DNA of 64,000 bases from positions 105,866 through 169,865 of the forward strand of contig DAIDHK010000002.1 of NCBI GenBank assembly GCA_027459725.1, in the 5' to 3' direction. Positions within the stretch are counted from its first letter, which is position 1. Every line of letters starts with the position of its first letter. The DNA is from Candidatus Levyibacteriota bacterium (GTDB taxonomy: Bacteria; Patescibacteriota; Microgenomatia; Levybacterales; UBA12049). Of this stretch, positions 1 through 58,832 are shown piece by piece. A program made the position numbers and the translations under genes. The notes under the pieces are model-generated. The model saw only the letters and a list, made by a program, of their open reading frames with translations. It was not told the DNA's origin and made no database searches.

Positions 1-1146
1 AAAAATGACATCTGATGTTTTTTGAATAGGCTGCTGAGTATTAGAAACTATATATCCGCTTCCAGGAGCCAAATTTTGTCCCACAGGAGTCTTTTCTACT
101 ACTGTTACTTTACCGGTTTTTGTATTCTGATTTGCCAGCCCTACTACCTGATGAGTTCTTGCATCAATAACCACTGATTGTTGAGTCAGCGTATCAGCGA
201 ATCTTTGTGCTAGAGTGTGGAAGGATAACAGAAGTAATACACTTATCACCAACACAGGCACAATCCAAACCTTTTTCTTTTGAAGTATAAGCATTAGCAC
301 AACTGCAACCAGATACACTGCATAGGATGTTCTTGACGCCGTAAGTAGTAATAAAATTAAACCTAAAATGGCTGTTATAACAAACAATATCTTCCAATAC
401 CATTTTTTTGTGCCAAAAACTAAACTACCAATTAAAGGAATTAACATAACCAAGTAAGCAGCCAAATCATAATGACCTGCAAACGTTGCCTGAATTCTCG
501 CACCAGATTGTAATATTAGGGGAATACCCTTAGCGAACTGTTCGTTCATAGTGGAATAAGCCAGAAAAACAGACGGATATCTTGCCTGACCAAATCCATA
601 TCCGATTATCAAAAGCATGGTAAATACCAATATGCCACTCATCCATGGAAGATATTTCTTGTCTCTCATCGCGGAAAATGCTAAGAAATAGACAACTAAA
701 TATTCAATATGGCGTAAGTAGAAAAGTACTGCATCGTGTGGAAAAACATTAGGAATTGTGGGGAAAATAAAGATAATTGCAACTACAGTCGAAATTAATC
801 CTACTATCCAATAAAGGACTATAGGAATGGTTAAGGGGGTCTTCCAGGTAGTCTTCTTCTTGAGAAGATAAAACAGCCACAACATAACACCAACAGCTAC
901 TGCAATATCGTCCAATCTTAAATAAACGAATGTGTTGCGTACCCCTTCTAAAGGAATCTTAGGATAAAGTGGAATAAATAAGGTAAGAAAGGCTGTATAT
1001 ATAAACAACAAATGTTTTCTAACAAAAGCAGAAAAAAGATATCCTCCGATCATTAACAAAATCAGAATAATAGGAGAATATATCTGCCATGAATCAACTG
1101 AAACATTATTTAAAAAAACATAACTTATTTCGTGCAGTAGGTTCAT
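1..1146 (-). CDS. Polytopic membrane protein, C-terminus cut by window edge; O-antigen ligase/polymerase-like (Wzy_C/WaaL-type) suspected
   Basis: ATG at 1146..1144 opens a minus-strand frame (MNLLHEISYVFLNNVSV...) that I followed without a stop to position 1. It is therefore absent from the ORF track, and the listed 194..403 ORF lies in a different frame inside it. Many hydrophobic segments. LTASRTSYAV resembles the S-R motif region of Wzy_C ligases. Hand translation, not verified over the full length. Confidence 0.45.
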   Translation of the reverse strand, partial: MNLLHEISYVFLNNVSVDSWQIYSPIILILLMIGGYLFSAFVRKHLLFIYTAFLTLFIPLYPKIPLEGVRNTFVYLRLDDIAVAVGVMLWLFYLLKKKTTWKTPLTIPIVLYWIVGLISTVVAIIFIFPTIPNVFPHDAVLFYLRHIEYLVVYFLAFSAMRDKKYLPWMSGILVFTMLLIIGYGFGQARYPSVFLAYSTMNEQFAKGIPLILQSGARIQATFAGHYDLAAYLVMLIPLIGSLVFGTKKWYWKILFVITAILGLILLLLTASRTSYAVYLVAVVLMLILQKKKVWIVPVLVISVLLLLSFHTLAQRFADTLTQQSVVIDARTHQVVGLANQNTKTGKVTVVEKTPVGQNLAPGSGYIVSNTQQPIQKTSDVIF

Positions 1147-1152
1147 ATATTT

Positions 1153-2028
1153 TTAAAATTTGATTGCTTTTTTGTAGCGGGAAACTAACTCCCGCTTCTG
1201 CAAAAGCATACCCATAAGTATAACAAAATAAGCTTTACTTAGCAGCAAGGATTTAGCAAAGTTATATTCTATACTGCTTTTATGTTTGCCGTAAAAGTAT
1301 AAAATGTTCTTATAAATATTCACTATAGCAAAAGTACGACTAGAACTACCCTGGTCCTGATGTATTATATCAACATCTGGGTAGAAAAGAACTTTATAGC
1401 CTTTTTCCTTTGCTCTAAAGCAAAATTCCATATCTTCCAGATACATAAAAATATGCTCATCAAATCCCCCCAGAGATATAAAAACATCCTTTCTAACCAT
1501 CATTAAAGCACCTTTTACCCAATCAACTTGCTTTATTTGTGAAGGACTTCTATCTATTAAACCAAATCTTTGTAAACCGAATAAAAACAATGATAAATTC
1601 CATAAATTATAAAATCTCCCGCTTGAACTTTGCAGAGTACCATCAGTATTTTTTAATTGACCTCCAAGAATCTTAACATTTTCATGGTTTTCAAGAAAGT
1701 TTAGCATTTCTTTTAATCCTTTTCTAACAAGTGTGTCATTATTTAAAAAGACTATCACTTTTCCATTTGCCTTTGTAACGCCTAAGTTATTACCGGCTCC
1801 GAATCCTCTATTTAGTTTGCTTTCTACTAATTGACAATTTGCATACTTTTTCTTTTTAATCTCTTTTTCAATCTGATTAACTGAATCATCCTGTGAAAAA
1901 TTATCTACTACAATCAATTCAAATTGATTATCTCTAAATTCATTACCGTAGATTTGATAAAGAGAATCGATACAATTCAGCGTTAACTGAGGTTTACGAA
2001 AATTAAGCGTAATAATAGAAAGTTGCAT
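1153..2028 (-). CDS. GT2-family glycosyltransferase (rhamnosyltransferase-like)
   Basis: ORF 1153..2055; start moved to ATG 2028 (MQLSIITLNF...) to avoid overlap with the upstream gene. Motifs VVDNFSQDDS, NRGFGAGNN and DMEFCFRA are typical of GT2. Confidence 0.8.
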   Translation of the reverse strand: MQLSIITLNFRKPQLTLNCIDSLYQIYGNEFRDNQFELIVVDNFSQDDSVNQIEKEIKKKKYANCQLVESKLNRGFGAGNNLGVTKANGKVIVFLNNDTLVRKGLKEMLNFLENHENVKILGGQLKNTDGTLQSSSGRFYNLWNLSLFLFGLQRFGLIDRSPSQIKQVDWVKGALMMVRKDVFISLGGFDEHIFMYLEDMEFCFRAKEKGYKVLFYPDVDIIHQDQGSSSRTFAIVNIYKNILYFYGKHKSSIEYNFAKSLLLSKAYFVILMGMLLQKRELVSRYKKAIKF

Positions 2029-2035
2029 AGAAGAT

Positions 2036-2641
2036 TTAACGAAACCAAGCAGCACGACCTAATTTGTAATGTAAGTCTTTGTTTTGTCTCTCCCCGATGA
2101 TTTTAGCAGGAACTCCTCCTACAATCGCAAAATCTGGTACATCTTTAGTAACCACAGCCCCTGCAGCTATAATCGCTCCTCGACCAATAGTCACTCCAGG
2201 TAAAATTATAACCCTTGGTCCAATAAACACATAATCTTTAATATCTACCTCCCCTTTAACTACACTATCCGCATCTGCAAAATGTTCAGCATTAATATTA
2301 TGCTCAGCATTGTAAATCATTACTTCAGAAGCAATATCCACATGATTACCGATAATTAATTTATCCCTACCATCTAGAATCGTACCTTCTCCGATAATTG
2401 TATCCTCACCTATAGTTATGTTACTAAGATTATAAAAACGAGCTAAAGTATGAATAGAAGATTCCTGGCCTATCTTCATTCCTCCTAATCGGTAGAAAAA
2501 CCTTCTAATATGATGAAAAGGTATATAGCCCACCCACATCTCCAGCATGTTACCTAACTCAATAAAAACAGCATTTAAACGATTTGTGGCTTTAGTCCGA
2601 ATCTCACTTCCTGATAATGATTTACCGGTTTTATCTTGCAT
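2036..2641 (-). CDS. Hexapeptide-repeat (left-handed beta-helix) sugar O-acetyltransferase
   Basis: Repeated [LIV]-G-x-x-x-x-I hexapeptides (IGEDTIIGEGTIL, IGNHVDIASEVMI, IGPRVIILPGVTIGRGAIIAAGAVV) followed by VPDFAIVGGVPAKIIG. Confidence 0.8.
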   Translation of the reverse strand: MQDKTGKSLSGSEIRTKATNRLNAVFIELGNMLEMWVGYIPFHHIRRFFYRLGGMKIGQESSIHTLARFYNLSNITIGEDTIIGEGTILDGRDKLIIGNHVDIASEVMIYNAEHNINAEHFADADSVVKGEVDIKDYVFIGPRVIILPGVTIGRGAIIAAGAVVTKDVPDFAIVGGVPAKIIGERQNKDLHYKLGRAAWFR

Positions 2642-2657: not shown

Positions 2658-3791
2658 TTACTCCTTACCCCCTACTTGTTGCAAAATATCCAATGTCTGT
2701 GTAGCAGCTTTCTCCCAGCTAAATTTTAAAACCTGCTCGTGCCCCTTGGCAATCATTTTTTCTCTTAGCTTGTGATCAGTTAAAACCTTCTCAATTGTAC
2801 TCAAAATATCATCTACATTAAGAGGATCAAAATATAAAGCAGCATCGCCTCCTGCTTCAGGTAAACTACTGACATTACTTGTTATAACTGGACAATCATG
2901 TCTCATTGCTTCCAGAATAGGTAAACCAAATCCTTCATAAAGACTCGGATAAACAAACAATTGAGCATTTTTATATAATATATCCAAATCCTCATCACTA
3001 ACAAAATCTAAAAATTTTACTTCCTTCTCAACGTTAAATTTCTCTGGAGCTTCCAAAATATCTTCATATAACCAACCTTTTTTACCTACAATAATGAGCT
3101 GTAGGTCATGTTTTAAAGTTGCTTTGATCTTAGAGAATGCTTCAATTAAGCGAGATACATTTTTTCTCGGCTGGAGCGTACTAACGAATAATAAATATTT
3201 ATCTGCTAACTCATATTTACGCTGTACTTCCTGCCATTTATAAATATGCGGTTCAAGTGTTGACATGGTCTTTTTATGCCTTATACCTGGATAAATGACA
3301 ATCACCTTATCAGGGCTAAGTCCATATACCTTAAGTATATCAGATTTGCTCGCTTCGCTTATGGTAATGACCTTGGTTGCATTTTTCACAGAGTATTTAG
3401 TCCAATTTTGAAGTTGATAGAGATCCTTTTTAGCAAAATATTGTGAAAAGTGTATGAAAGCCAAATCCATAATTGATACAACGGTCGGACATAATGCAAG
3501 CCTAGGAGCATAATGTGAGGGCGTAAAAAAAACGTCAGGCTTAGACCTTTCAAGTAATAGCCGAGCCGGCAATGCAAATTGGGTCCACATTTTTTTAGGA
3601 CCAAACACTATATACTTCCAGGTGTCATTCGTTATAGGGAAATCAGAAGCAGGTTTATCTTTTAAATAGATATTAAACTTAGGTCTCGCAGACTGAATAA
3701 GAGCAAACTGATTGATTAACTCATAAGCAAATTCGCTTACTCCAACACGCCTTGTAACATTTGCCTCATTTCCATCAATTCCTATTAACAT
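2658..3791 (-). CDS. GT4 (GT-B, group-1) glycosyltransferase
   Basis: C-terminal EGFGLPILEAM motif and N-terminal MLIGIDGNEA. 377 aa. Confidence 0.85.
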   Translation of the reverse strand: MLIGIDGNEANVTRRVGVSEFAYELINQFALIQSARPKFNIYLKDKPASDFPITNDTWKYIVFGPKKMWTQFALPARLLLERSKPDVFFTPSHYAPRLALCPTVVSIMDLAFIHFSQYFAKKDLYQLQNWTKYSVKNATKVITISEASKSDILKVYGLSPDKVIVIYPGIRHKKTMSTLEPHIYKWQEVQRKYELADKYLLFVSTLQPRKNVSRLIEAFSKIKATLKHDLQLIIVGKKGWLYEDILEAPEKFNVEKEVKFLDFVSDEDLDILYKNAQLFVYPSLYEGFGLPILEAMRHDCPVITSNVSSLPEAGGDAALYFDPLNVDDILSTIEKVLTDHKLREKMIAKGHEQVLKFSWEKAATQTLDILQQVGGKE

Positions 3792-3793: not shown

Positions 3794-4333
3794 TTAATTA
3801 ATACCTGGATATACAACTGTTAACTTATCTTCCGCGATACCCAATAAATTCCTAGCATCTTTTTTAGTCGATTCCGAGATACAGATAAATTTACTATCCT
3901 CTTTAATGGCCCAACTTAATTTACGTTTTTGGGTTTGAACTATCTTATCATCTGTCTCATCCGGATTTGTATATACAACTAAATCATAAAGGATAGAAAT
4001 CTTTTTTGCTTTTAAACTTGGCGGTTCTGTCCAGTCTGAAGTTATAAAAACGTCTACATTTCCTATAAACCATTCCACCGGCATGATATGCAATCTATTC
4101 CAAAGTAAATCAAGCATACCTGGGGGTATCTTAAATTGTTTCAACAATACATTACTTTTCGAAATACTAACTTTAAGATTTGCCGAATGAACCGTATTTC
4201 TTAAGTTAGAAAAAAACAAAATATATTCATTGTTATTATCTTCATCGATTAAATGATTAACCAATTCTAAAAGATAATTAGCTACACCTGTATTCTTATA
4301 AACTAATTGACTAATATCAATCCCAATTTTCAT
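3794..4333 (-). CDS. Stand-alone GT4 N-terminal-domain ORF (179 aa), paralogous to the N-half of 2658..3791; possible duplication remnant
   Basis: MKIGIDISQLVYKNTGVANYLLELVNHL parallels MLIGIDGNEANVTRRVGVSEFAYELINQF. It ends ...KLTVVYPGIN, where the neighbour has VIVIYPGIRHK mid-protein. The C-terminal EX7E half is missing. Confidence 0.5.
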   Translation of the reverse strand: MKIGIDISQLVYKNTGVANYLLELVNHLIDEDNNNEYILFFSNLRNTVHSANLKVSISKSNVLLKQFKIPPGMLDLLWNRLHIMPVEWFIGNVDVFITSDWTEPPSLKAKKISILYDLVVYTNPDETDDKIVQTQKRKLSWAIKEDSKFICISESTKKDARNLLGIAEDKLTVVYPGIN

Positions 4334-4334: not shown

Positions 4335-4556
4335 CTATTTCTCTTTCATAATCATATAAAGATGCACAATTACGGATACAAATAAGAAACCTACAGCATA
4401 TGACACGAGTCTCTCAGCAGTAAAAAAAATATGGGCTGCGAATAATGGAATACAGAAAACCAGGCTTAATAAGCCTGCATAAACCAACCAATTAGCCCTG
4501 GCTTTATATAACAGAACCAATAAAACAACTACAAAAACAATATCTTGAATCTTCAT
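4335..4556 (-). CDS. Small 2-TM membrane protein, translationally coupled to the upstream GtrB-like gene
   Basis: 73 aa and hydrophobic. Its start overlaps the stop of the 4556..5485 gene (TAATG). Confidence 0.4.
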   Translation of the reverse strand: MKIQDIVFVVVLLVLLYKARANWLVYAGLLSLVFCIPLFAAHIFFTAERLVSYAVGFLFVSVIVHLYMIMKEK

Positions 4557-5485
4557 TAAGCATCAGTAGAGAAACGCAACGGATGATGCGTAATTTCTTT
4601 GGCTGATGTGTTTATTATGAGGTCTGCCAAAAATCCAGTCAAGAAGGACTGTAGACCTGCTAATAGAAATAGCATCCCATATGTGAGGAGTGGTCTATCC
4701 CCAATTGTATAACCAATAAAATGCATAATTGACAAATAGATCAAAATGCCCAGACCTATAATAAATATGGCTCCTCCTAACATTCCAAAGAAGTGCATTG
4801 GTCTTTTGCTGTATTTATACAAAAAAAGCATCGTAAAAATATCTGGAAGATCTTTCCAGACTTTGGAAAAACCAAACTTAGATATGCCAAATTTTCTTTT
4901 GTCATGTTCTATAGCTACTTCTGTTACCTGAAAACCCTCCTGATAGGCCAGTAGTGGAATAAATCGATGAAATCCTCCGTATAATTTTAACGATTTTGCA
5001 CAATCTGATGTATATGCTTTAAGTCCACAATTGTAATCGTGTAATTGCAAACCCCAAAAATTACGAGCTAAGTAATTAAAAAACTTAGAAGATATGACTT
5101 TTCGTTGACTGTCTTTTCTTTTATAACGCCATCCACTAACCACATCCCACTTGTCTTGTTTAATTAATTTTAGCAATTTATTAATCTCACTCGGTCGGTC
5201 TTGCAAATCGGCATCCAAAGTTACTACAAACTCCCCCTTTGCTTTCTGGAAACCAAGTGTCAAAGCTTCTGCTTTACCTTGATTTTTACGAAAAGAAAAT
5301 ATTCTGATGGTTTTATCCTTTTTTGATATTTCTTTTAATAAGTTTAGAGATGAGTCAGTAGATCCATCATCGATAAAAACAATTTCACATACCTCTTTTG
5401 ATTTAAGAATTACTTTTTTCAGCTCCTTATAAAAAGGCTGCAAGCTCTCTTCTTCGTTATAAACCGGAACCACATAACTTATCAT
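4556..5485 (-). CDS. Polyprenyl-phosphate sugar synthase, GT2 with C-terminal TM pair (GtrB/ArnC/DPM1-like)
   Basis: VVPVYNEEESL, IDDGSTDSS and TLDADLQ GT2 core, plus two C-terminal TM helices (FFGMLGGAIFIIGLGILIYL; LLAGLQSFLTGFLADLII). Confidence 0.8.
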   Translation of the reverse strand: MISYVVPVYNEEESLQPFYKELKKVILKSKEVCEIVFIDDGSTDSSLNLLKEISKKDKTIRIFSFRKNQGKAEALTLGFQKAKGEFVVTLDADLQDRPSEINKLLKLIKQDKWDVVSGWRYKRKDSQRKVISSKFFNYLARNFWGLQLHDYNCGLKAYTSDCAKSLKLYGGFHRFIPLLAYQEGFQVTEVAIEHDKRKFGISKFGFSKVWKDLPDIFTMLFLYKYSKRPMHFFGMLGGAIFIIGLGILIYLSIMHFIGYTIGDRPLLTYGMLFLLAGLQSFLTGFLADLIINTSAKEITHHPLRFSTDA

Positions 5486-5554: not shown

Positions 5555-7642
5555 TTAACCTGGAATACGTCTTGTTTGATACGATCTAATGAATGAGTAG
5601 ATTAATAATATAATGATGGATATCAAACTGATCATACTTATGATAAGTCCTCTATCTACCCAAATTTGAGGGGTGTAATATACCATGTATTCGCCATTTC
5701 CTGAGATTATAAAACTGTTATACCGGGCATTATAAACTTTTGCATAAACGGATTGTTTATTAACTCCGATCAATTCCCAATGAGGATCATAATTCTCAGC
5801 AAAGACAAGCTTATCTCCTGGCAGACTATTGGTAATATTCACTTTATACTTTACCGGACTGATAAATTGAGATTGTATTGTTACTTTATCCGGTGACCAG
5901 AAGTGCTGTTTATATCCACTTAACTTAAATACCTTAATCTTGCCAAAGTCAGGCAAATCATGAAGCCATGAAATTTGGGCGATCTGAGCAATGGTCTGAT
6001 TATATATTGCAGCATCATACTTTCGATTATTCAGGAAAATTTCCCCTTCAGAATCATAAGGAACGATAATGTACTCAACTCCCGCCTCTTGTAACTGTTT
6101 CTCTGCCCCCACTGATTTAAGTTGATTTACGACTAGTGCAGGATTATAAACTTTATAAAAATCCTCGGCACTTATTTCAGGATGAGTATTTGAATAATAT
6201 CCAAAACGTTGGGGAACTGGCATCCATAAAGTCCTGGAATAATTATTTTGAGATGATAAATATTTCTGCAGTTTAATATAATCGTTGGGAACTGGTGTTG
6301 ATCTAAATGTACCACTCAACTGCCCCAGCAGGGCCGGCCGAATTAAAAACAACAGATACACAAATACAGCAAATAAAAATACATTTTGCAAATTAATAAA
6401 AGAAGATTTTGATTTTAATTGATATTTTAGATTTAAGATTTTTACTTTATTTTGACATTTCAGCCATTGGTACACCTGCCAGATGGTAAATGGTATAAGC
6501 ATTGAATATGAAATTGCCACTAATAAATACCATTTTGTTGGGTCACGAAACATTATGAATCCTGGAATGTGTGCAAACATCCAAAGATACACGAATCCAA
6601 ATGGATCATTGGCTCCTTTAGCAAGAAATGCCCCAATCAAAGCTAGAAGAGCAAAATAGAGGATATATAATTTTTGCTGTTTATTAATTCTCTTAAGAAA
6701 TAACAATGATGAAAATGCCAATATTGGCAACAATATAAATTCAGGTCTCATAAAATGAGTCAAACCGAATATATTTTCTGGCCAATTTGGATGAAGAAGA
6801 GAAATTGAATTTTCAATACGAGAAAAACTAAAGAACTTAACTGAGGTAAAGGAGGTATAAGCTGAACCAAACTGTTGTAGTGGATTTTGCTGATAAACTG
6901 CCATTGGTATTAACCAATAAGATTGAAGTAAAAAAACTGTAACACCTGGAACTATAGTAAATAATATAATTCTTTTTAGATAATCAAATACCCTAATTGA
7001 TTTATATTCTAAAATTTCATAACTTAAACATATAATAAAATAGAGATAAATTCCAACTAGAAGAATATAAGTAGTCCTTAGATCAAATATTAGTTCAAGA
7101 GAGACAAATAAGGAAAAGATAAGCAGATATTTTAAGTTATAATCCTCTACCATTCTGATGAAAGAATAGATAGTTAACGGAGTCAGGCTGTATGCAAGAC
7201 CAATCCCTGCAATTTGTCCTCCGGAAATTGTTAAAAGAATATATGTATTAAAAGAAAAGACTATAATACTGAACAACTTTATTATTACATTGTTAAATAC
7301 CTTATGTGTGAGTATTATGATTGAAATAAAAGACAAAAAAATAAATGGTAACCACCAAACTAATCGTTCAGAAATAGAAATATTTTTGTATAAAATAAAT
7401 CCTATCCAACCATAAACAAAATTTATCGGAGCTCCATGTAATAATCCTGTATTACTCCAACCCAGATTTATTTTATTTTCCCATGAAGCAAACGCATAAT
7501 TTTTAAAAAAATTTATTATTGATATAGGAAATGACTCATAATCACCTCCCGATATGGGATTATTAATAAATACTACTTTGTAAATTACTAAAAATAGAAT
7601 AAATACAGGAAAATAAACTATATAATTTTTAAATCTTTTCAT
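5555..7642 (-). CDS. Polytopic membrane protein with C-terminal extracytoplasmic domain (GT-C-like); paralog of the N-region of 7914..11435
   Basis: 695 aa with ~12 hydrophobic segments and then a soluble tail. ISGGDYESF...NLGWSNTGL is shared with SGEGGIQFGDY...GFSGTG of the 1173-aa neighbour. Confidence 0.55.
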   Translation of the reverse strand: MKRFKNYIVYFPVFILFLVIYKVVFINNPISGGDYESFPISIINFFKNYAFASWENKINLGWSNTGLLHGAPINFVYGWIGFILYKNISISERLVWWLPFIFLSFISIIILTHKVFNNVIIKLFSIIVFSFNTYILLTISGGQIAGIGLAYSLTPLTIYSFIRMVEDYNLKYLLIFSLFVSLELIFDLRTTYILLVGIYLYFIICLSYEILEYKSIRVFDYLKRIILFTIVPGVTVFLLQSYWLIPMAVYQQNPLQQFGSAYTSFTSVKFFSFSRIENSISLLHPNWPENIFGLTHFMRPEFILLPILAFSSLLFLKRINKQQKLYILYFALLALIGAFLAKGANDPFGFVYLWMFAHIPGFIMFRDPTKWYLLVAISYSMLIPFTIWQVYQWLKCQNKVKILNLKYQLKSKSSFINLQNVFLFAVFVYLLFLIRPALLGQLSGTFRSTPVPNDYIKLQKYLSSQNNYSRTLWMPVPQRFGYYSNTHPEISAEDFYKVYNPALVVNQLKSVGAEKQLQEAGVEYIIVPYDSEGEIFLNNRKYDAAIYNQTIAQIAQISWLHDLPDFGKIKVFKLSGYKQHFWSPDKVTIQSQFISPVKYKVNITNSLPGDKLVFAENYDPHWELIGVNKQSVYAKVYNARYNSFIISGNGEYMVYYTPQIWVDRGLIISMISLISIIILLIYSFIRSYQTRRIPG

Positions 7643-11599: not shown

Positions 11600-12262
11600 T
11601 TAATCTCTAATATCTTTCATTGCAAACATATATATTGCATTTTCGGGTTTATACATTAATAATGGTTGAAATAACATTGATATCAAAAAAAGTATGTTAG
11701 AAAATATACCATATTTAACCACAACATTTTCTTCCTTATATAGAACTCTAAGTCCTTGACCAGTTACCATATATCCCTTTTCTCGTAGGTCTTTAGGATA
11801 CCATTGTGATTTATGTGCCTGATGTTGATTCCCATCATATTCTTCCTGATGCAGATATCCAATTGGCATTGCTAAAACTACTCTTTTTTTTGCAATTTTT
11901 TCCAGCTTCCTTATTAAGTCATCTCCCTCTTTCTTAGTTAAATGCTCTATAACATGAAAACAAATCACTACATCGAAAGATTTTTCTTTAAAGGGTAATT
12001 TCCTAATATCTGAATTAATCAACTTTGTATAGACATTTTTTAATTTACATTCCTTAAGATATGGATCGTAAATGTCTACACCTGTAGCTGTATATAACTT
12101 TTTATAGTTTATGATTTCCATGGGTAATCCGGTTCCACACCCAACATCTAGAATTGTCTTGAAATTGTTACCTACCATAGATCTGAGGATACCATTATAT
12201 GTAAGAGGAAAATACGATAAAAATAATTCCCATTTTCCAATCTTTTTATTAAACATGCCCAT
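11600..12262 (-). CDS. Class I SAM-dependent methyltransferase
   Basis: ILDVGCGTGLP motif I and VIEHLTKKE. Confidence 0.8.
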   Translation of the reverse strand: MGMFNKKIGKWELFLSYFPLTYNGILRSMVGNNFKTILDVGCGTGLPMEIINYKKLYTATGVDIYDPYLKECKLKNVYTKLINSDIRKLPFKEKSFDVVICFHVIEHLTKKEGDDLIRKLEKIAKKRVVLAMPIGYLHQEEYDGNQHQAHKSQWYPKDLREKGYMVTGQGLRVLYKEENVVVKYGIFSNILFLISMLFQPLLMYKPENAIYMFAMKDIRD

Positions 12263-30019: not shown

Positions 30020-30020
30020 A

Positions 30021-48086: not shown

Positions 48087-48786
48087 TTTTTAAATCCCAC
48101 CAGAGAATAAGGCTCTCTAGAACCGCCCTAACAACGACAGGAACATTTGCTCCTGTAGGCTTCCCATGTAGTCTTGGATAATGCTCTACACCCACTTGTG
48201 TAATCTTTAATTTCTTTATGGTTGCTTTTGCCAATATTTCAGTTGTAATCATTGCCCCTTCTGATCTAAGTGGCATAATTGACTCCAGTGCACTTTTCCT
48301 AAACATCTTAAATCCACAATCTATATCTTTAAAATGAAAATGAAACAACATAAAATCCCAAATTTTAAGCAGATTCATTAGTAAATGTCTAGCCAACGGA
48401 TCCTTTCGAGACTTACGATAGCCAATAACCATATCAGATTTTTGTATAGCGGCTATAAATTTATCTATTTCTGTAATATCAAATTGTCCGTCGCCGTCTG
48501 TAAAAACAACAAATTCATATTTAGAATTTATGAATCCTTCTTTAAGTGAAGCACCGTATCCTCTATTTGGGTGATGCGAGATTACTTTTAATCTACCATC
48601 TTTAACTGTTAATTTTTTCGCTATATCTAGTGTTTTATCTATGGAGCCATCATCTACCATCAGAATCTCCCACTTAGTTGCCACTTTATCTGCAACTTTA
48701 ATGGCATTGTTAACAACTTCTTCAATGTTTTCTTCCTCGTTCCAAAATGGAAAAAAAATTGATAACTCAGGTAACATTTCACTCAT
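48073..48786 (-). CDS. DPM1-like polyprenyl-phosphate sugar synthase (soluble GT2)
   Basis: LSIFFPFWNEEENI, MVDDGSIDKT and FTDGDGQ. Confidence 0.75.
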   Translation of the reverse strand: MSEMLPELSIFFPFWNEEENIEEVVNNAIKVADKVATKWEILMVDDGSIDKTLDIAKKLTVKDGRLKVISHHPNRGYGASLKEGFINSKYEFVVFTDGDGQFDITEIDKFIAAIQKSDMVIGYRKSRKDPLARHLLMNLLKIWDFMLFHFHFKDIDCGFKMFRKSALESIMPLRSEGAMITTEILAKATIKKLKITQVGVEHYPRLHGKPTGANVPVVVRAVLESLILWWDLKNGRF

Positions 48787-52132: not shown

Positions 52133-53836
52133 TTACTTCAATGAAATAACACTCACTACTGGTTTAGTATAAGGGTATTGTGCAAGTGTATTTTGCAAAG
52201 AAAGTACGACAGGTTTTGTAGGATCATAAAATATTTTTATGGAGTGTGCATCTGCAGGAACATCAGCACTGGCAGCCACTAATAAGGTGTTTTTGTCTGC
52301 TAAATCTTTAGACCAGTTAATTTTACGAAATTGATATTTCCCAATGCTTTTAACTGATGTGAAAAGACTGTCTGGTTGATAAACTACACTCTTTTGGAAG
52401 CTCAAAGGAGGATACTTTTGATAAAATGCCAGAGATGTATAAATGTAAGGCGTATCTGAGTCAATTACAATCTGTGAATAATTTGGCGCAAGTGACTTTA
52501 AATATAATGAAAGTGGTTTATCCGTTAGTCTCCATTCATCTGCATAAAACTTAGGAAATCTATAATAGTATGACGCCTGAAAATAGAAAAAAGAATAAAA
52601 AATTATAATTGAAATTATAACAGTAAATATCTTAAAGTATGTTTTGTTGGTTCTCTTTAAAAAACTGATTAATTCATAACAGCCGTATGCTGAGAAGAAT
52701 GTCATCGGTATTACAATAGGATAACTTCGAGTACCATGAGGCACTACTGAACTAAATCCAACTATTAAAATTAAGATTGTCCCCCATGATAAGAAAATCA
52801 TTGCCGTTTTGGTAATCCTCTTTGAAAGAAAGTATATACCAGCTACGATAAACAACAAATCTATGGGATAAAAAGCACCCACATTTCCAACTCCTACATC
52901 TCCATTCGCAGATCCTAAAGAATAGAAGAAAAAAGAGGTTGAAAAAGAGTTTACTAGATTTCTACCGTATTCCCAGATTAATAAGAAGAAACTATTAAAA
53001 AATAATGCTGATAAGAAATGGGGCAGCGGTGTCATATAGCTTCTCATCTCCACCATAGCTGCCTTAGCGTTACCTCCAAGTAATGTGACATTAGTTTCAT
53101 TATGGAATCCTGAAGCTTTAAAGAAAGTAAAAATAAAGGGTGTAATTAATGCAAAAAAAACAACTCCTAATAATATTATTTTTTTCAAACCAAGTTCACT
53201 AAATTGTTTTTTGTATATAAAAACCAGCGACAATAAAAGTAAAGGCGCATGAAATCTTGTAATGTTATATGAATATAATGCTACTACAATAGCAATTAAT
53301 GCTAGTAAATAAAATATAAATTTTTTCTTTTCAGTTGCAAGTACAAAAAACAAAGTCCCCAAAACTTCAAAACAAACCGCCATATTTACCTCAAGGGCAA
53401 CACGTGAAAAGAAAAGATTCCAGGGATTTATTGTCAGGAATAAAGCTCCTACCAAAGCTAGCCATTCATTTTTTGTTAATAATTTGAGTAGAAAATAAAA
53501 AGCAAAGATTGTAATTACACCAGCCAAAGCTGAGGGCAATCGTACTGCAAAAGCATTCTCTCCAAAAATACTTTCACTTATAACCGTAGTGTAAATATAA
53601 GCTGGCAACTTGTAATCGTTAAATGATTTAAAATATAGAGGATATTTTACTCCATGTTCATCTCTACCTGTTTGTAAAATTGAAAACGCATTAAATCCAA
53701 TCGCAGTCTCATCCTGATTCATACCAGCAGGAATAGCGGATAATTTATAGAATCTCAAAAAAATGGCTGCAACAAGAATTAATAAAAATAAACCGAGAGA
53801 TATTTTTTTTTGATATTGAGATATAAACGGAAACAT
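52133..53836 (-). CDS. GT39-family (ArnT/PMT-like) glycosyltransferase
   Basis: MNQDETAIGFNAFSILQTGRDEHGVKYP. Confidence 0.8.
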   Translation of the reverse strand: MFPFISQYQKKISLGLFLLILVAAIFLRFYKLSAIPAGMNQDETAIGFNAFSILQTGRDEHGVKYPLYFKSFNDYKLPAYIYTTVISESIFGENAFAVRLPSALAGVITIFAFYFLLKLLTKNEWLALVGALFLTINPWNLFFSRVALEVNMAVCFEVLGTLFFVLATEKKKFIFYLLALIAIVVALYSYNITRFHAPLLLLSLVFIYKKQFSELGLKKIILLGVVFFALITPFIFTFFKASGFHNETNVTLLGGNAKAAMVEMRSYMTPLPHFLSALFFNSFFLLIWEYGRNLVNSFSTSFFFYSLGSANGDVGVGNVGAFYPIDLLFIVAGIYFLSKRITKTAMIFLSWGTILILIVGFSSVVPHGTRSYPIVIPMTFFSAYGCYELISFLKRTNKTYFKIFTVIISIIIFYSFFYFQASYYYRFPKFYADEWRLTDKPLSLYLKSLAPNYSQIVIDSDTPYIYTSLAFYQKYPPLSFQKSVVYQPDSLFTSVKSIGKYQFRKINWSKDLADKNTLLVAASADVPADAHSIKIFYDPTKPVVLSLQNTLAQYPYTKPVVSVISLK

Positions 53837-53841: not shown

Positions 53842-55383
53842 CTATGGTAAGACCTTATATAAGGTTGCATGTACTTTACCATCATTTTTAGTAATGCTAT
53901 ATACTGGTGTAACCGGCCAATCTGCTGGGGCCACACCTGTAGTGGGACAGTTCGGACACGGCTCATAGAAATAAACATAGGTCGGCATTTTTTTAGCCAT
54001 TAATGCAAGATCGTTCGGAATATTCGCCTGAATCGGCCAATATGCCTTAGTTGTAACGTTTGGATCGTTATAAAAATACATTTCAAAAGCAAATGGCATC
54101 AGACCAAAAGTACCTTGTGTAGCTACAAAAATATGTTGATTCATTGATTCATTTTTTAAATATTGAATTGACTCTTTTACACCCCAACCTGCCGGCCAAT
54201 CTAATACATACTGATTTTTGTCAGCTTGCGGAATCGGAGCATTCACAGGATCTGTAATAAAATAAATACTTACATAAAATGTCGGAAGAATTGCAATAAT
54301 AGTCAATACTAACAAATATTTTGAAAAATATTTTTCTTTAGATTTTATTAGTATTGTTGCACTACGCCAGATCCCATATGCCGCAATTGGCAATAAAACG
54401 ACTGTCATAAATAGTATGTATCGGGGAAAAATAACTTTGCCAAACATAGCATCAAAAACGAAAGGGGCAGCAAAATAAACTAGCAAGACTAATTTCTCGC
54501 GCCAAAATGATATAGATATTAAACCTACTAGTAAAAATACCATATAACTAACATTGAAATACTCCACAAACCACAAGATTAATGATTGTATATTACCGGT
54601 AAATAATTGATATTTCCAAAGTAGTGTGTGACTCAGCCAATCTTTTAAAGGATATATAAACACTGTATCTTTTAACCCAATAGTGCCATATAAAGGAGAT
54701 AATCTAAGAATAGAATACATCATCATACCTATCAAGACGGAGATCAAACCATAACCTATAGCTCTTAATATTTTATTCTTAATACCTTTCTGACTAAAAT
54801 CGAAGATAATAAACATAAACGGCATAAGAGCCATACTTATGAAAGCTCCTGCTTTTGTCAGGGCTCCACATCCTAAAATAAATCCTAGATTATAGCTGTT
54901 TTTTAAATTAACTTTACGAAATAAGATGAGGGAAAAATACAATGCCCAAACATACCACATGGCAGATAGACTGTCTTCTATGGCTAAACGATCATGTAAT
55001 AATGCAAGCGGGTAAAAAATATATAAAAGAGAACTTATAAGAGCAATCTTTGTATTTTTAAAAAATCCATAACCTAGGAAACCAACCCCAATCATACCAA
55101 AAAATCCACTGAGAACAGAAGATAACCTACCAGCTAAAAGCGGATCTTGTATAACCTTTAGAAATAGCATCATGATCCATGTCTGCATCGGAGGTTTACC
55201 ATCAGTCAAAGAGATAAATCTCCAACTTGAATCATGCAAAGCTACCTGAGCCCACCGAATATAGATAGCTTCGTCGGTAAAAATAGGTAATTTAGTCAAA
55301 AATAGTAGCCTTGTTACAAAGTATGCAATAACCAGCAAAAAACCGACAAGGATATTGTACCTGTGCTTCAAAACTAATCGCAT
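53842..55383 (-). CDS. GT39-like membrane glycosyltransferase (divergent)
   Basis: LPIFTDEAIYIRWAQ loop and ~12 TM. Confidence 0.6.
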   Translation of the reverse strand: MRLVLKHRYNILVGFLLVIAYFVTRLLFLTKLPIFTDEAIYIRWAQVALHDSSWRFISLTDGKPPMQTWIMMLFLKVIQDPLLAGRLSSVLSGFFGMIGVGFLGYGFFKNTKIALISSLLYIFYPLALLHDRLAIEDSLSAMWYVWALYFSLILFRKVNLKNSYNLGFILGCGALTKAGAFISMALMPFMFIIFDFSQKGIKNKILRAIGYGLISVLIGMMMYSILRLSPLYGTIGLKDTVFIYPLKDWLSHTLLWKYQLFTGNIQSLILWFVEYFNVSYMVFLLVGLISISFWREKLVLLVYFAAPFVFDAMFGKVIFPRYILFMTVVLLPIAAYGIWRSATILIKSKEKYFSKYLLVLTIIAILPTFYVSIYFITDPVNAPIPQADKNQYVLDWPAGWGVKESIQYLKNESMNQHIFVATQGTFGLMPFAFEMYFYNDPNVTTKAYWPIQANIPNDLALMAKKMPTYVYFYEPCPNCPTTGVAPADWPVTPVYSITKNDGKVHATLYKVLP

Positions 55384-55466: not shown

Positions 55467-56804
55467 ATGACCTCAACAAAAAATAACACATTAAAACATA
55501 AACGTTTATTATTTAACTATATCTATAAAGAAATTTCTAACCATAAATTAGAAGTCCTAACTTTTATAATCTTTCTTATTGTATTCATCTTTCTAAGATC
55601 ATACCAGTTAGAAGCAAGAATGTCCTTTAACTTTGACCAGGTAAACGGAGCCTGGGCAGCCAAGGATGCACTAGTTGATCATCACTGGCCATTAACTGGT
55701 CCAGTCGCTAAGCAAAACTCGGGTTTTTCTATGGCACCTTTATATTATTATATTTTGATTCCATTTTATTTTATTTTTAACTTACATCCCATCGCCTCGG
55801 GGGTTGCTGCTATTTTTATCAGTACCTTAACCTTTTTGTGTTTATTTTTTGTTGTTAAAAATCTATTCAATACTAAAATAGCTTTCATTGCAGCCGGTAT
55901 AGATCTTGTATCAGTATATATTATTAATTCCGATAAAATTGATTGGAATGCTGGAATAACCGTGATCACTTCTACATTGACGTTCTTTCTCCTGTACAAA
56001 ATACTAACTGGAAAAGTGAAAATGATAATTCCTTTATCTTTAGTCTTAGGTCTTTCGTTAAGCGGAGATTTTACAAATATTTTCTATTTCTTTATTGTTT
56101 TACTATCTCTTCCTTTCTTCCCCAGAAAAAGACAGGTTCTATTCTATTCCCTGCTGGGTATAGCAATAATTATTCTGATGATAAGTCCAGTTATTATAAA
56201 TGAAATGACAATGCATAGAAGTCAAGGGACTAATCTACTAACTTATATGGGAACTTATTATCATGGTTTTCACCTAACCCGATTCTTACAGCTTAGAAGA
56301 GATGCTTTTATTGAGTTTGTGATGATTTTTGGCAACAATATTGTGAGCTATTTTGATTTTCTTCTTCCTTTACTATTTATATTTCTTTATGTACGTCAGC
56401 ACAAGAACAAAGAAGCAATCATTTTTTCAATACTTGTCGTTCTCTGGTTTTTTATTCCATGGCTAGTTTTTACAGCTTATAGCGGAGAAATAAGCAACTA
56501 TTATTTTTATATGACCCGTCCTGTTATCTTAATGATGCTAGCATATTTCACTTATAGACTTCTATTTACTCAGCAATTAATTATAATAATATTCGTAGTT
56601 ATTTTTTGGGGATATTTTTCTTACTCTAACTTAATAACTTTTTTTCAAGAGAATCCGGGAAATGATTTTCTTAATGCCAAACATTTGATTACACCTGAGG
56701 TTCAGGCACATAATACTAGCGTGAGACATATTTACTCAACTCCAGAAGCATATCTGCAATTTTATTATGAGGACTATAAAAACTTTAACTTAAATGATAA
56801 TTAA
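55467..56804 (+). CDS. Polytopic membrane protein (GT-C-like, unassigned)
   Basis: 445 aa with 12+ TM. Loop FDQVNGAWAAKDALVDHHWPLTGP. Confidence 0.5.
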   Translation: MTSTKNNTLKHKRLLFNYIYKEISNHKLEVLTFIIFLIVFIFLRSYQLEARMSFNFDQVNGAWAAKDALVDHHWPLTGPVAKQNSGFSMAPLYYYILIPFYFIFNLHPIASGVAAIFISTLTFLCLFFVVKNLFNTKIAFIAAGIDLVSVYIINSDKIDWNAGITVITSTLTFFLLYKILTGKVKMIIPLSLVLGLSLSGDFTNIFYFFIVLLSLPFFPRKRQVLFYSLLGIAIIILMISPVIINEMTMHRSQGTNLLTYMGTYYHGFHLTRFLQLRRDAFIEFVMIFGNNIVSYFDFLLPLLFIFLYVRQHKNKEAIIFSILVVLWFFIPWLVFTAYSGEISNYYFYMTRPVILMMLAYFTYRLLFTQQLIIIIFVVIFWGYFSYSNLITFFQENPGNDFLNAKHLITPEVQAHNTSVRHIYSTPEAYLQFYYEDYKNFNLNDN

Positions 56805-58072
56805 GGCTTCACAACTGCATTGTATATCTGTTTGAGAGAATATAGACCACCAATCACACTTGCTGCAATCATTATATACATATATGCTAGTTCCTGATCG
56901 ATAAACCAAAATGAGCTCCATAAGCCAGTAAAAAGATAAGGTAAATATGTTAATTGGGCAAGAAAAGTAAGCAATACAATAAACCCTTTAAGATATTTAT
57001 TTTGCAGTAATGGTAGAAAAGTCACTACATACATCAGATACCACGGCTGAAACTCTGTACGGAAAATAGCCAATGTTATAGCACCTATCATGAATATCAC
57101 CATCATATTGAGAAGATAAAAAGGAATAGAGTCTTTCCCTTTTTTTTGTATAAAGTAAATCCAAATAAAAATGGGTAACAATACTATAGTAGCGTATTTA
57201 ATTAAAGCTGATGCTATTAGTAATAACACAGCCCACCAAAACCTTTTATTTATAAGCAGATAAAATCCAAATACTGCAAAAAACATCATAACGATATCAT
57301 TATGACTGGAGACTAGTGACTCAAGAACTACTAAAGGATTCAAAGCAAATAATACTATCCCTAAGCTTTTTTTTGACTGATAAAGTTTATCAAGAATTTT
57401 GTATAAATAGAAAACAGTACCAAGATAAGCGGATGTCATCAGAATCTTAAACAAATAAAAAGTAAGTATAAAAATATGCATTCCCACAAATGAAAAAGGT
57501 AATGTTATTAACAACCACAATGGTCCATATGCCTGTGCATATGTTCTATTTGTCCAGCGCATGAATCCAAGCATAGGATCATGGGGATAATCTTGAGCCT
57601 TGTGTAAATATGGATTTTGGTGATAGTACGTTAAGATTCGTGCGTCAAAGATATAATTAAATAAATCATAAGACAACATGTTATATGAAAAGGTGAGAAT
57701 AATTGCTGTCAGCCCTATCAAAGTTACTATCAAAGGAAATGATATTTTTCTTAGATGTATTATTCTTAATGTATATAAATACAAAGAAAAGAAAACTATT
57801 ACCATTAGACAAAATAAAAAAGTAGATAAAGGGCGATTAAAATAACCTATATATTGAAATTGTCTCTCAATAGCATATAACCAAGGAACTCTACTAATAA
57901 CCAAACCCAAATCAGCCTGAGTGTAACTTAAAAGTAAGAGCAATATTAGGAATATTCCCCAAGAAGTTGCTACAATTTTTTCTATTTTTGTTCCTTCTTT
58001 ATAAACAAATTTCAAATTGCTAACGAATAATTTAAAGGGAGATAGAAACTTTTTCACATTATTTATAAACAC
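56801..58072 (-). CDS. Polytopic membrane protein (GT-C-like, unassigned)
   Basis: 423 aa and highly hydrophobic. Its start overlaps the end of the DPM1-like gene 58059..58832. Confidence 0.5.
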   Translation of the reverse strand: MFINNVKKFLSPFKLFVSNLKFVYKEGTKIEKIVATSWGIFLILLLLLSYTQADLGLVISRVPWLYAIERQFQYIGYFNRPLSTFLFCLMVIVFFSLYLYTLRIIHLRKISFPLIVTLIGLTAIILTFSYNMLSYDLFNYIFDARILTYYHQNPYLHKAQDYPHDPMLGFMRWTNRTYAQAYGPLWLLITLPFSFVGMHIFILTFYLFKILMTSAYLGTVFYLYKILDKLYQSKKSLGIVLFALNPLVVLESLVSSHNDIVMMFFAVFGFYLLINKRFWWAVLLLIASALIKYATIVLLPIFIWIYFIQKKGKDSIPFYLLNMMVIFMIGAITLAIFRTEFQPWYLMYVVTFLPLLQNKYLKGFIVLLTFLAQLTYLPYLFTGLWSSFWFIDQELAYMYIMIAASVIGGLYSLKQIYNAVVKP

Positions 58073-58832
58073 CAGAGATAATGTTCTTTTTTATTGCAAG
58101 CAAGTCGATAAATCCGGCTATTGAACTGCGTAAAGGGCTTACTCTTCTTGTCTCGACATGTAACCAACGAACAGGTATTTCTTTTATATTGTACCCCAAC
58201 TGTTTGGCTAAATAAAGAATTTCCATATCCATACCTGCTGAAACATTTGCCCCTGAGACATTTTTAAAGCCATGATGAATTTCTGAAAACTTTGTGAAAA
58301 GTCTCTGAGCACTCTTGTGGGTGAACATTTTGAAGCCGCATTGGGTATCGACAATTTCTGGTAGACCGATCAGCATTTTACGCAGCACTACTGCTGCTAT
58401 TGAAACAAATTTTCGAGTCCAGGGCGCACCTTGACGTTGATTACTTCGAGACCCAATCACTATATCATAACCATCTTTGGTAAAAGGGAAAAATTTACTT
58501 ACTTCTTCAATAGGAGTGGCCTGATCCATATCAGAAAATAAAATATTTTCTCCTTTGGCGGCTAAGACCCCTGTCGTAACCGCTCCGGCTTTCCCACTAT
58601 GTTGATTCTTAATCAGAGAGAAATTATCGTTTTGTTTAATAAAATCTTCTATGAACTCAACGCTTCCATCATGGGATCCATCATCGACTACAACGACTTC
58701 ATAATAGTACTTGGTTCTATCTAGAAAATGTTGTACTTTGTCGAGAACACCTTTTTGTAGGTTAGCCATTTCATCGTAACATGGAATTACAACTGATAAA
58801 TATATTTTCCCGTTCACAGAGAAATTATACAA
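58059..58832 (-). CDS. DPM1-like polyprenyl-phosphate sugar synthase (soluble GT2)
   Basis: LSVVIPCYDEMANL, VVDDGSHDGS and FSDMDQA. The ORF-track start is TTG at 58832, but that TTG lies inside a -10 box, so the real start is probably GTG at 58817. Confidence 0.7.
   Translation of the reverse strand: MYNFSVNGKIYLSVVIPCYDEMANLQKGVLDKVQHFLDRTKYYYEVVVVDDGSHDGSVEFIEDFIKQNDNFSLIKNQHSGKAGAVTTGVLAAKGENILFSDMDQATPIEEVSKFFPFTKDGYDIVIGSRSNQRQGAPWTRKFVSIAAVVLRKMLIGLPEIVDTQCGFKMFTHKSAQRLFTKFSEIHHGFKNVSGANVSAGMDMEILYLAKQLGYNIKEIPVRWLHVETRRVSPLRSSIAGFIDLLAIKKNIISGVYK

Follow-up and report, generated by a model that had tools for sequence, protein, structure and literature searches.

How does a bacterium of the candidate phyla radiation (CPR) use nearly 59 kb of contiguous genes for glycosyltransferases and their accessory enzymes, and which lipid carriers would feed them? 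The question is raised by a stretch of 64,000 nucleotides from Candidatus Levyibacteriota bacterium (assembly GCA_027459725.1, contig DAIDHK010000002.1, positions 105,866 to 169,865 of the forward strand), hereafter the window, of which positions 1-58832 hold 46 open reading frames (ORFs) of at least 100 aa, g0 to g45, covering 98% of the bases. A first-pass annotation, made from the sequence alone, had noticed the abundance of membrane glycosyltransferases of the GT-C type and the lack of any priming enzyme, and had concluded that sugars are transferred outside the membrane from polyprenyl-phosphate monosaccharides and not by a classical lipid-linked pathway. The analysis presented here leads us to think it likely that the locus is a hybrid, in which an undecaprenyl-diphosphate-linked glycan pathway is joined by numerous GT-C reactions outside the cytoplasm, for which polyprenyl-phosphate sugars would serve as donors.

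Every ORF of the window was scanned with Pfam, and NCBIfam, PDB-profile and fold searches were also made; all window coordinates given below are on the minus strand unless stated otherwise. Eighteen intact polytopic proteins, from about seven sequence families, are of GT-C type, where at least 17 had been announced. They include six PMT_2 proteins above the gathering score and two below it, one YfhO, two PTPS_related, one GT87, two AftD-like proteins and three Pfam orphans whose GT-C fold was either demonstrated or deduced. Ten of the 18 pass a Pfam gathering score. In the PMT_2 family (gathering score 26.1), these are g24 (28559..30094; 27.6 bits), g27 (33260..34936; 43.7 bits; GT39/GT83-like), g28 (34938..36584; 33.9 bits), g29 (36581..38299; 29.2 bits), g41 (52133..53836; 41.1 bits) and g42 (53842..55383; 41.3 bits). 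The YfhO protein is g32 (39995..42229), with 63.5 bits for a gathering score of 28.5. Both g39 (48783..50477) and g40 (50474..52129; 30% identical to g39) match PTPS_related, with 59.9 and 28.3 bits (gathering score 26.4), and g44 (56801..58072) belongs to the GT87 type, the family of the MptA-like mannosyltransferases (27.5 bits for a gathering score of 25; TIGR03459, 47 bits, below the cut-off). Additional matches above threshold are those of g27 and g41 to the PMT domain PF02366 (28.9 and 29.2 bits; gathering score 22.7) and of g39 to STT3 (29.5 bits). The PMT_2-like proteins below threshold are both encoded on the plus strand: g22 (25778..27268; 18 bits; BLASTP to g24, E 3.6e-21) and g43 (55467..56804; 21 bits), the latter with 32 orthologues of up to 46% identity in related loci. 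The paralogue of g24 encoded by g25 (30021..31553; about 10 hydrophobic segments) has no Pfam match, its relationship to g24 being given by BLASTP (E 1e-13). The five GT39/ArnT/PMT-type proteins of the first-pass annotation have thus become six, or eight with the sub-threshold ones, and its single YfhO-like protein stands.

By hydropathy, each of the 18 proteins has 6 to 12 hydrophobic segments, for an expectation of about 7 to 13 transmembrane (TM) helices in GT-C enzymes, and the predicted structures of g26 and g13 are helical bundles. All-against-all BLASTP yields the sets g27/g28/g29/g41 (27-35% identity over the full length), g22/g24/g25 with g43 weakly linked, g39/g40, g6/g7 and g26/g35, g13 standing alone. 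A WDEA/DE motif in loop 1 is invariant in g27, g28, g29 and g41, and in most of the 18 proteins TM1 is followed within about 45 residues by an Asp or Glu (for example g22, g25, g32, g39 and g43); the acidic residue of g44 stands at a much greater distance from TM1 and is hard to align. Two proteins, g27 and g41, have both the PMT domain and the loop-1 DE motif, and on these grounds are candidate protein O-mannosyltransferases of the GT39/bacterial PMT type. The weakest GT-C assignments are those of g6, g25, g35, g22 and g43, made by paralogy or from sub-threshold matches. Judged from families, motifs and folds, the large membrane proteins are GT-C glycosyltransferases and not transporters, as the first-pass annotation had expected a search with hidden Markov models to tell. 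The reading of these proteins as transporters was rejected, transporters having appeared only at a Foldseek probability below 0.35.

Profile searches of solved structures gave no match for the g26/g35, g13 or g0 families and a marginal one for g7 (AftD only, E 0.07), so that fold comparison was needed for the orphan families. The g7 gene (7914..11435) encodes an AftD-like GT-C protein of 1173 aa with a large extra-membrane part and a weak match to GT-C_AftD (18 bits). At least 125 homologues of it exist in the databases; GT-C_AftD (PF11847) is annotated in about half of the 120 that were listed. The product of g6 (5555..7642; about 10 hydrophobic segments) is a GT-C-like paralogue of its N-terminal domain (BLASTP, 26% over 415 aa, E 6e-14). 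For g26 (31516..33258), at least 354 homologues were found; among the 120 listed, none has a Pfam domain and all bear the source-given name "hypothetical protein". The AlphaFold2 model of g26, built with 44 sequences, is confident (pLDDT 91, pTM 0.90), and its top 19 Foldseek matches are all of GT-C fold (STT3, ArnT, AftA, DPY19, ALG9, AftB, AftD, Pmt1/2 and PIG-U, the GPI-transamidase subunit). Just after the first helix stands the invariant motif H-x-x-Y-P-D-E-x-D-N, with P-D-E-x-D-N unchanged across 44 homologues. A profile search of 1.84 billion cluster representatives brought the family to 1261 members at E <=1e-3, with distant members that reach PMT_2 above its cut-off; direct alignment of the g26/g35 family with the PMT_2 paralogues by hhalign is weak (30%). 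GtrA is the proposed flippase for polyprenyl-phosphate sugars, and 28 of the 33 N-extended distant members have a GtrA_DPMS_TM domain fused at the N-terminus (for example P0313, P0317 and P0322). This recurrent fusion independently ties the orphan family to lipid-monophosphate donors. The distant paralogue g35 (44114..45742) has no Pfam match, aligns with g26 over 499 aa (BLASTP, 20%, E 1e-5) and has the D-E motif column in common with it. The last orphan, g13 (15989..17743), is rare, with 6 homologues only, and lacks a Pfam match. Its family has an invariant YGDDW at 39-43, hhalign relates it to the profile of the PMT_2 paralogues (79%, E 1.5e-5), and the top 17 Foldseek matches of its AlphaFold2 model are all of GT-C fold (STT3/PglB/DPY19/PIG-U).

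Which donors would these enzymes use? Five short GT2 proteins of the block, g5, g18, g30, g38 and g45, are grouped together by BLAST. The profile built from them (A5; g30 as first sequence, length 238) matches the structures of ArnC over positions 6-225 of 238 (E 2e-38), of the Pyrococcus DPMS over 5-218 (8e-33) and of GtrB over 2-176 (2e-30), other GT2 structures being matched only at positions 8-132. The control profile, made from six other GT2 proteins of the window (A6), has chondroitin synthase, GalT1 and polypeptide GalNAc-transferases as top matches and reaches ArnC, DPMS and GtrB via its N-terminal half only. These comparisons support the view that the five are polyprenyl-phosphate-sugar synthase-like at the family level, in agreement with the five DPM1/GtrB-like enzymes annotated earlier. 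The ArnC-like g5 (4556..5485) matches the ArnC model PRK10714 with 150.7 bits over 8-293 of 316. Top NCBIfam matches include PgfS and PpgS (4-203 of 226) for g18 (21643..22389), AglJ (114 bits) and PpgS (75.6 bits) for g30 (38323..39033), PgfS, AglJ and ArnC (5-207) for g38 (48073..48786), and PgfS and ArnC for g45 (58059..58832), the first gene of the block. Overall the matches are to ArnC, PgfS, AglJ, PpgS and dolichyl-phosphate hexose transferase, with PgfS among the top for four of the five, and the scores (46-151 bits, for equivalog cut-offs of 325-529 bits) indicate family-level membership only. C-terminal TM anchors are present in GtrB and ArnC and absent in some DPMS types; here, a C-terminal extension with two TM segments exists in g5 only, and the sequences of g18, g30, g38 and g45 do not extend past the catalytic and interface region. 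The GT-C proteins would presumably take their sugars from polyprenyl phosphate, as is indirectly indicated by the five co-encoded synthases and by the GtrA fusions in the g26 family.

Two genes encode MOP-family flippases of the Wzx kind found in Wzx/Wzy clusters: g19 (22370..23638; Polysacc_synt_3, 43 bits) and g37 (46635..48086; Polysacc_synt_3, 170 bits; Polysacc_synt, 85 bits). The first overlaps the synthase gene g18 by 20 bp and the second overlaps the synthase gene g38 by 14 bp, and this adjacency of flippase and synthase genes recurs in relatives. In three-component systems described by Kelly et al., it is a MATE/MOP-type protein that is proposed to flip the lipid-monophosphate donor, in place of GtrA (PMC11127046). 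Given the overlaps, their recurrence and this precedent, the two "Wzx" genes may serve the GT-C modules instead of, or besides, a repeat-unit pathway. The window contains no GtrA-family ORF, and no gap big enough for one except that occupied by a pseudogene (see below).

Alongside these genes, the block encodes soluble-type transferases. Pfam counts 13 GT2 proteins, the five synthases and eight others (about ten others had been announced), and six complete GT4 proteins, as in the first-pass annotation, plus one protein limited to a GT4 N-terminal domain. The eight GT2 proteins, with their Glycos_transf_2 scores, are g1 (1153..2055; 67 bits), g9 (12266..13306; 120 bits), g11 (13926..14807; 112 bits), g16 (19713..20543; 88.5 bits), g23 (27796..28557; 73 bits), g31 (39030..39980; 75.9 bits), g34 (43362..44111; 63.5 bits) and g36 (45690..46631; 62.8 bits); g1 is of cytoplasmic type, the profile group to which it belongs matching chondroitin synthase and GalT1 and not full-length ArnC. 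The GT4 proteins, with their Glycos_transf_1 scores, are g3 (2658..3791; 133 bits), g12 (14800..15999; 80 bits), g15 (18580..19716; 103 bits), g17 (20540..21727; 97.6 bits), g20 (23607..24692; 101 bits) and g33 (42226..43296; 92 bits). The stand-alone N-terminal domain is the 179-aa product of g4 (3794..4333; Glyco_transf_4, 35 bits), which adjoins the full-length GT4 gene g3 and may be a partner subunit. That g4 is a broken or frameshifted gene was ruled out, since relatives keep a separate ORF of about 180 aa (L089:3528-4076, L092:6811-7359, L102:6041-6583 and L116:6783-7316). Tailoring enzymes, all of them recognized in the first-pass annotation together with the two flippases, are three S-adenosylmethionine (SAM) methyltransferases, g8 (11600..12262; Methyltransf_11, 63.9 bits), g10 (13303..13923; Methyltransf_25, 48 bits) and g14 (17754..18587; Methyltransf_11, 82.5 bits), a WcaF-like hexapeptide-repeat sugar O-acetyltransferase, g2 (2036..2641; Hexapep, 53.7 bits; WcaF family, 86.6 bits, below the cut-off), and the UDP-glucose 4-epimerase GalE, g21 (24700..25668; TIGR01179, 404.5 bits for a cut-off of 262).

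What, then, primes the glycan that these cytoplasmic enzymes would build? No ORF of the window has a Bac_transf, Glycos_transf_4 (WecA/MraY), Wzz or ABC-exporter domain in Pfam, exactly as had been noticed at first. The answer probably lies past the edge of the window, which cuts g0 (1..1146) so that the first 382 aa remain of a Wzy_C-like membrane protein of the O-antigen ligase/polymerase type. In the fragment, Wzy_C scores 24.4 bits for a gathering score of 31.7, and the NCBIfam IctB family scores 39.7 bits; the Wzy/WaaL-like gene of the first-pass annotation corresponds to this truncated match below the Pfam threshold. A metagenome scan with the fragment alone found no homologue, and one with an alignment of g0 and its homologue from the related locus L028 found 80 metagenome loci. 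Full-length homologues are mostly of about 1020-1095 aa. Wzy_C is matched by 19 of the 27 members of the alignment (26 full-length homologues and the window's g0), with a best E of 4e-8. In their C-terminal half, the homologues can be aligned by hhalign with the PMT_2 core (84%, E 8e-6) and have the TMTC/PMT-like motifs FxxDDFTW and FFYRPG (alignment A9, consisting of L092:9995-13129 and 25 other loci). The g0 family thus looks like a fusion of a Wzy_C-type domain with a PMT_2/TMTC-like GT-C domain. In a related metagenome contig, a 609-aa protein made of PMT_2 followed by multiple TPR repeats, and TMTC-like in this respect, adjoins the conserved g5-g0 block (L089:682-2508).

Upstream of the g0 homologues, the order synthase, GT4 half, GT4, acetyltransferase, GT2, g0 is conserved and corresponds to g5 to g0. 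Downstream and on the same strand come a PMT_2 GT-C gene (39.7 bits), then GT4, GT2, GT4 and GT4 genes, a ManC-like nucleotidyltransferase gene, a phosphoglycosyltransferase (PGT) gene and a DUF4012 gene. The PGT is a 221-aa Bac_transf protein (208.5 bits; L092:20048-20710), and, among the 30 loci whose downstream DNA extends to 8.5 kb or more, 27 have a homologue of it 5.9-8.2 kb past the g0 stop codon. In L092, the ManC-like gene is at 18962-20041 and the DUF4012 gene at 20766-22391, a place that would suit a chain-length or export factor. Wzz was seen neither in the ORFs of the window nor in the g0-downstream flanks of the relatives. Since the window stops inside g0 and relatives carry the PGT 6-8 kb beyond, the missing priming enzyme is probably an effect of the window edge, and the locus, at least 59 kb long here, probably extends to about 70 kb as judged by synteny. 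The absence of a gene at the edge of a window should not be read as the absence of a pathway. The first-pass annotation had itself named a PGT, Wzz and Wzy immediately outside the window as what would speak against it; the PGT is probably there, if the contig continues as in the relatives, and Wzz was not seen.

This evidence bears on the model first put forward, according to which polyprenyl-phosphate monosaccharide donors and GT-C enzymes would glycosylate proteins or an S-layer with no undecaprenyl-diphosphate-linked oligosaccharide route. Such a model agrees with the five donor synthase genes and 18 GT-C genes, with the lack of a PGT, Wzz and ABC exporter in the window ORFs and with the PMT (GT39-type) matches of g27 and g41 above the cut-off, and it has a parallel in streptococci, where a YfhO-type GT-C enzyme, a GT-A synthase and an epimerase O-glycosylate proteins (PMC12041528). 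However, it leaves without a role the 14 soluble-type GT2 and GT4 enzymes, the tailoring enzymes and the Wzy_C-like gene, and it does not account for the same-strand Bac_transf PGT and ManC-like genes that 27 of 30 syntenic relatives carry after the g0 homologue. We therefore consider it improbable, and the step from the absence of a PGT to the absence of a lipid-linked pathway does not hold. The 14 cytoplasmic GT2 and GT4 genes, the flippases, the Wzy_C-like g0 and the downstream PGT of relatives argue instead for a lipid-diphosphate pathway operating beside the GT-C steps.

In the combined scheme that we favour, two routes would meet outside the membrane. In the first, a PglC-type PGT, encoded beyond the window and, in relatives, 6-8 kb past g0, would prime an undecaprenyl-diphosphate-linked oligosaccharide; the cytoplasmic GT2 and GT4 enzymes, the three methyltransferases, the acetyltransferase and GalE would build and tailor it; a MOP flippase would carry the product outward; and the Wzy_C-like g0 would polymerise or ligate it. 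The second route would consist of multiplied "three-component" modules. The five ArnC/DPMS/GtrB-type GT2 enzymes would load monosaccharides onto polyprenyl phosphate, the donors would cross the membrane, perhaps by means of the two MOP proteins encoded in overlap with synthase genes, and on the outer side the 18 GT-C enzymes would use these sugars to extend or decorate the glycan of the first route and/or Ser/Thr-rich surface proteins. The age of the tandem paralogues (20-35% identity), the large extra-membrane domains (g7) and the AftD-like and GT87 members suggest, by analogy with mycobacterial mannan and arabinan assembly, that polymer chains are extended and that single-sugar decoration is not the whole of it. 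The PMT- and YfhO-type GT-C proteins, the PgfS-like synthases and the epimerase are equally reminiscent of actinobacterial and streptococcal protein O-glycosylation. The acceptor may be a polymer, proteins or both.

Is this arrangement a peculiarity of one genome? A tblastn scan with the g27 family, with one genome per species, found 566 relatives, of which the best 80 were examined. All 80 are Patescibacteria metagenome-assembled genomes (MAGs), with record titles mostly of Levybacteria or Levyibacteriota and about half with other or generic labels; Gottesman-, Roizman- and Woesebacteria are among them, and the best tblastn identity is about 51%. Several records (L002, L012, L014, L016, L028 and others) are titled "uncultured Gammaproteobacteria bacterium" or "Candidatus Limnocylindrales", which look like placeholder or wrong labels. 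All 80 loci, of at most 21 kb and centred by construction on a GT-C homologue, have 2-12 GT-C-like genes; in the 44 that reach the full 21 kb, the number ranges from 5 to 12, with 9 as the median. The density of GT-C genes, called exceptional at first, is so when compared with characterised bacteria, but is the norm in Levybacteria and Microgenomates. The comparison of genome contexts in related MAGs, which the first-pass annotation had called for, also revealed, besides the PGT gene, an order that is conserved across the 80 loci: GT4, YfhO, GT2, synthase, five to seven GT-C, GT2, (GT-C), GalE, GT4, flippase, synthase, GT4, which corresponds to g33 down to g17. A closer relative, L081 (GCA_027459745.1; 82% identity for g26), has this same order, one more PMT_2 paralogue (four PMT_2 copies) and two extra B-family genes. 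Orthologues of individual GT-C paralogues, 40-57% identical, occur in many genomes. The cluster is a conserved chromosomal feature of the lineage and neither a one-off nor a mobile island, a reading of the latter kind being ruled out by the uniform GC content (0.28-0.35) and the conserved synteny. Complete chromosomes among the relatives measure 0.995 and 1.09 Mb, and, since these are of about 1.0-1.1 Mb, the block of at least 59 kb would take up roughly 5-6% of such a genome.

The same comparison brings in a second alternative, namely that the block is a glyco-island in which several independent systems are located together, each with its own synthase, GT-C set and acceptor, and not one assembly line. 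A capsule or secondary cell-wall polymer, the glycosylation of a teichoic-acid-like polymer and protein O-mannosylation would be examples. The five synthase genes are indeed spread along the block, each beside its own GT-C genes; the segment g5-g16 is missing from L028, in which the GT-C core and the g4-g0 block are direct neighbours; and the number of paralogues varies among relatives, with four PMT_2 copies and two extra B-family genes in L081 and one pseudogene here. On the other hand, the gene order is kept across Levy-, Gottesman-, Roizman- and Woesebacteria, and operon-like gene overlaps run across module borders, two observations that are compatible with separate acceptors as well. We hold such a composite to be possible rather than probable, and it does not exclude the combination of the two lipid-linked routes described above.

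A third explanation would make the majority of the GT-C paralogues redundant copies, or copies in decay, without a catalytic role of their own. It is suggested by the tandem paralogues g27-g29, g24-g25 and g39-g40 and by one clear pseudogene remnant. The latter (27266..27802) consists of the N-terminal 178 aa of a GT-C paralogue with 3 in-frame stops (tblastn, 56% to a 525-aa protein of L081, E 3.5e-57). It fills the only large intergenic gap and is truncated at the end of the plus-strand gene g22. Because the remnant ends where g22 ends, a local inversion comprising g22 is suggested to have destroyed one GT-C paralogue. Against general decay, all 18 GT-C ORFs are intact, and the acidic loop motifs are invariant within families. 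In addition, the paralogues are just 20-35% identical, which means that the duplications are old, and orthologues at 40-57% identity persist in many genomes. We regard general decay as very improbable.

The block is nearly, but not strictly, unidirectional, as g22 and g43, both GT-C genes, are on the plus strand and the other 44 genes on the minus strand; of the roughly 47 co-directional, tightly packed genes first announced, 46 were found, with tight junctions and these two exceptions. Junctions between g0 and g45 are mostly of -85 to +23 bp, with larger gaps of 65 (g33/g34), 69 (g5/g6), 83 (g42/g43), 109 (g21/g22), 164, 222, 271 and 527 bp. The whole window is AT-rich, with no compositional break. 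On one side, the cluster stops at a tRNA-Glu(CTC) gene (58950..59023, plus strand; ARAGORN; Rfam tRNA, 57 bits), which marks its upstream boundary; on the other, it is open at coordinate 1, where the window cuts g0. At the cluster start, a promoter and terminator scan gave 24 sites for 27.4 expected from shuffled sequence, and hence no excess. The best sigma-70-like match of the region (58852-58824, minus strand; ATGACA, 17-nt spacer, TATAAT, 11/12) coincides with the listed TTG start of g45, and for this reason the true start of g45 may be further downstream. Past the tRNA-Glu gene there are unrelated genes, an AAA_14/DUF4143 ATPase gene (59310-60497, plus strand) and a PIN-domain gene. The latter and the 78-aa ORF that precedes it (61233-61646 and 61649-61885, both on the minus strand) make up a VapBC-like toxin-antitoxin pair outside the cluster. 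Positions 63200-64000 contain no ORF of at least 50 aa in the list, in which ORFs running off the window end could not appear.

Several observations weigh against the combined scheme. Tight packing is no proof of a single pathway, and the absence of g5-g16 in L028 fits modular, separable functions. The GT-C assignments of g6, g25 and g35 come from weak paralogy, and the model of g13 is of moderate confidence only (pLDDT 69). All five synthases are far below the equivalog cut-offs that would give a sugar specificity. Neither a Wzz/PCP protein nor a GtrA-type flippase is found in the window, the Wzy_C match of g0 is sub-threshold there, and the PGT of the window's own locus is placed by synteny with relatives only.

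CPR bacteria, or Patescibacteria, are ultrasmall, mostly uncultured organisms that lack many biosynthetic pathways and are attached to other microbes. With such a small, attached lifestyle, the surface is where their biology happens. That Levy-, Gottesman-, Roizman- and Woesebacteria all keep a block worth about 5-6% of such a genome implies that a complex extracellular glycan or glycoproteome is under strong selection, and the locus points to an elaborate, uncharacterised sugar coat. Every class of component is already known. What is unusual is the scale, 18 GT-C proteins and five synthases in one operon-like block of a lineage with chromosomes of about 1 Mb, together with the fact that a whole CPR class has kept the block, the two GT-C families absent from Pfam and the Wzy_C::PMT_2-like and GtrA::g26-like fusions. 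As a tentative extension, which we would not yet favour, Microgenomates-class CPR bacteria might make an undescribed major envelope glycopolymer, put together mostly on the outer side of the membrane by about 18-20 GT-C enzymes working as an assembly line, which would include at least two families absent from Pfam (g26/g35 and g13) and a Wzy_C::PMT_2-like fusion; it would be a functional analogue of mycobacterial lipoarabinomannan or arabinogalactan, would occupy about 5-7% of a genome of about 1 Mb and would be central to episymbiotic surface biology. The five donor synthases, the two Pfam-absent GT-C families, the GtrA::GT-C fusion and the Wzy_C::PMT_2-like fusion are concrete targets. In the literature on GT-C enzymes or glycosyltransferases of CPR bacteria, Patescibacteria, Levybacteria and Microgenomates, we found no description of such an expansion, most subscription journals being outside the search. 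A 2024 preprint on Saccharibacteria calls glycosylation processes there unexplored, pilin glycosylation having been predicted, but not tested, in that group (PMC11623550).

How does the locus compare with known systems? The Wzx/Wzy clusters for O-antigen, capsule and general O-glycosylation resemble it by their GT2 and GT4 enzymes, tailoring enzymes, MOP flippases and Wzy_C-like protein and, in relatives, by the small same-strand Bac_transf PGT. They differ from it in that here the g0 family is apparently fused to a PMT_2-like half and GT-C enzymes outnumber cytoplasmic transferases; as the PGT and Wzz are absent from it, the window does not represent a complete Wzx/Wzy cluster.

In mycobacteria and corynebacteria, arabinogalactan, lipomannan and lipoarabinomannan are assembled by Emb, AftA-D, MptA/B (GT87), PimE and Ppm1, several GT-C families polymerising outside the membrane from polyprenyl-phosphate sugars. 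The likeness resides in the many GT-C proteins, with AftD-like (g6, g7) and GT87 (g44) members. In contrast, the genes here form one contiguous block in a lineage with chromosomes of about 1 Mb, and the similarity is marginal (E 0.07 for AftD). No ORF of the window has a Pfam domain of the decaprenyl-phospho-arabinose genes (UbiA-type DPPR synthase, DprE1/E2), and, for want of these donor-synthesis genes, the locus does not belong to the mycobacterial arabinan pathway.

The streptococcal Pgf and GtrB/PgtC2 systems, of the kind mentioned above for protein O-glycosylation (PMC12041528), and the CsbB/YfhO glycosylation of teichoic acids in Firmicutes have in common with it a GT-A synthase, a GalE-type epimerase, a YfhO GT-C enzyme (g32) and a monoderm-type envelope. 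However, only one of the 18 GT-C proteins here is of YfhO type, the locus is an order of magnitude larger and, as a difference from the streptococcal systems, no adhesin or Ser/Thr-rich acceptor gene was identified in the window.

Finally, the three-component systems, GtrA/GtrB/Gtr* of Shigella and Salmonella, ArnC/ArnT and the Citrobacter synthase with its MATE flippase and GT136 (PMC11127046), are alike in the pairing of a GT2 synthase with a GT-C enzyme, in the coupling of a flippase gene, here that of a putative donor flippase, to the synthase gene and, probably, in an acceptor made by a separate lipid-diphosphate pathway. They have one synthase and one GT-C enzyme, whereas this locus has five and 18; with its components multiplied in this way and a window devoid of GtrA-type flippases, it cannot be called a simple Gtr system. 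By comparison with them, its scale suggests the building of a chain rather than the addition of a single side-branch.

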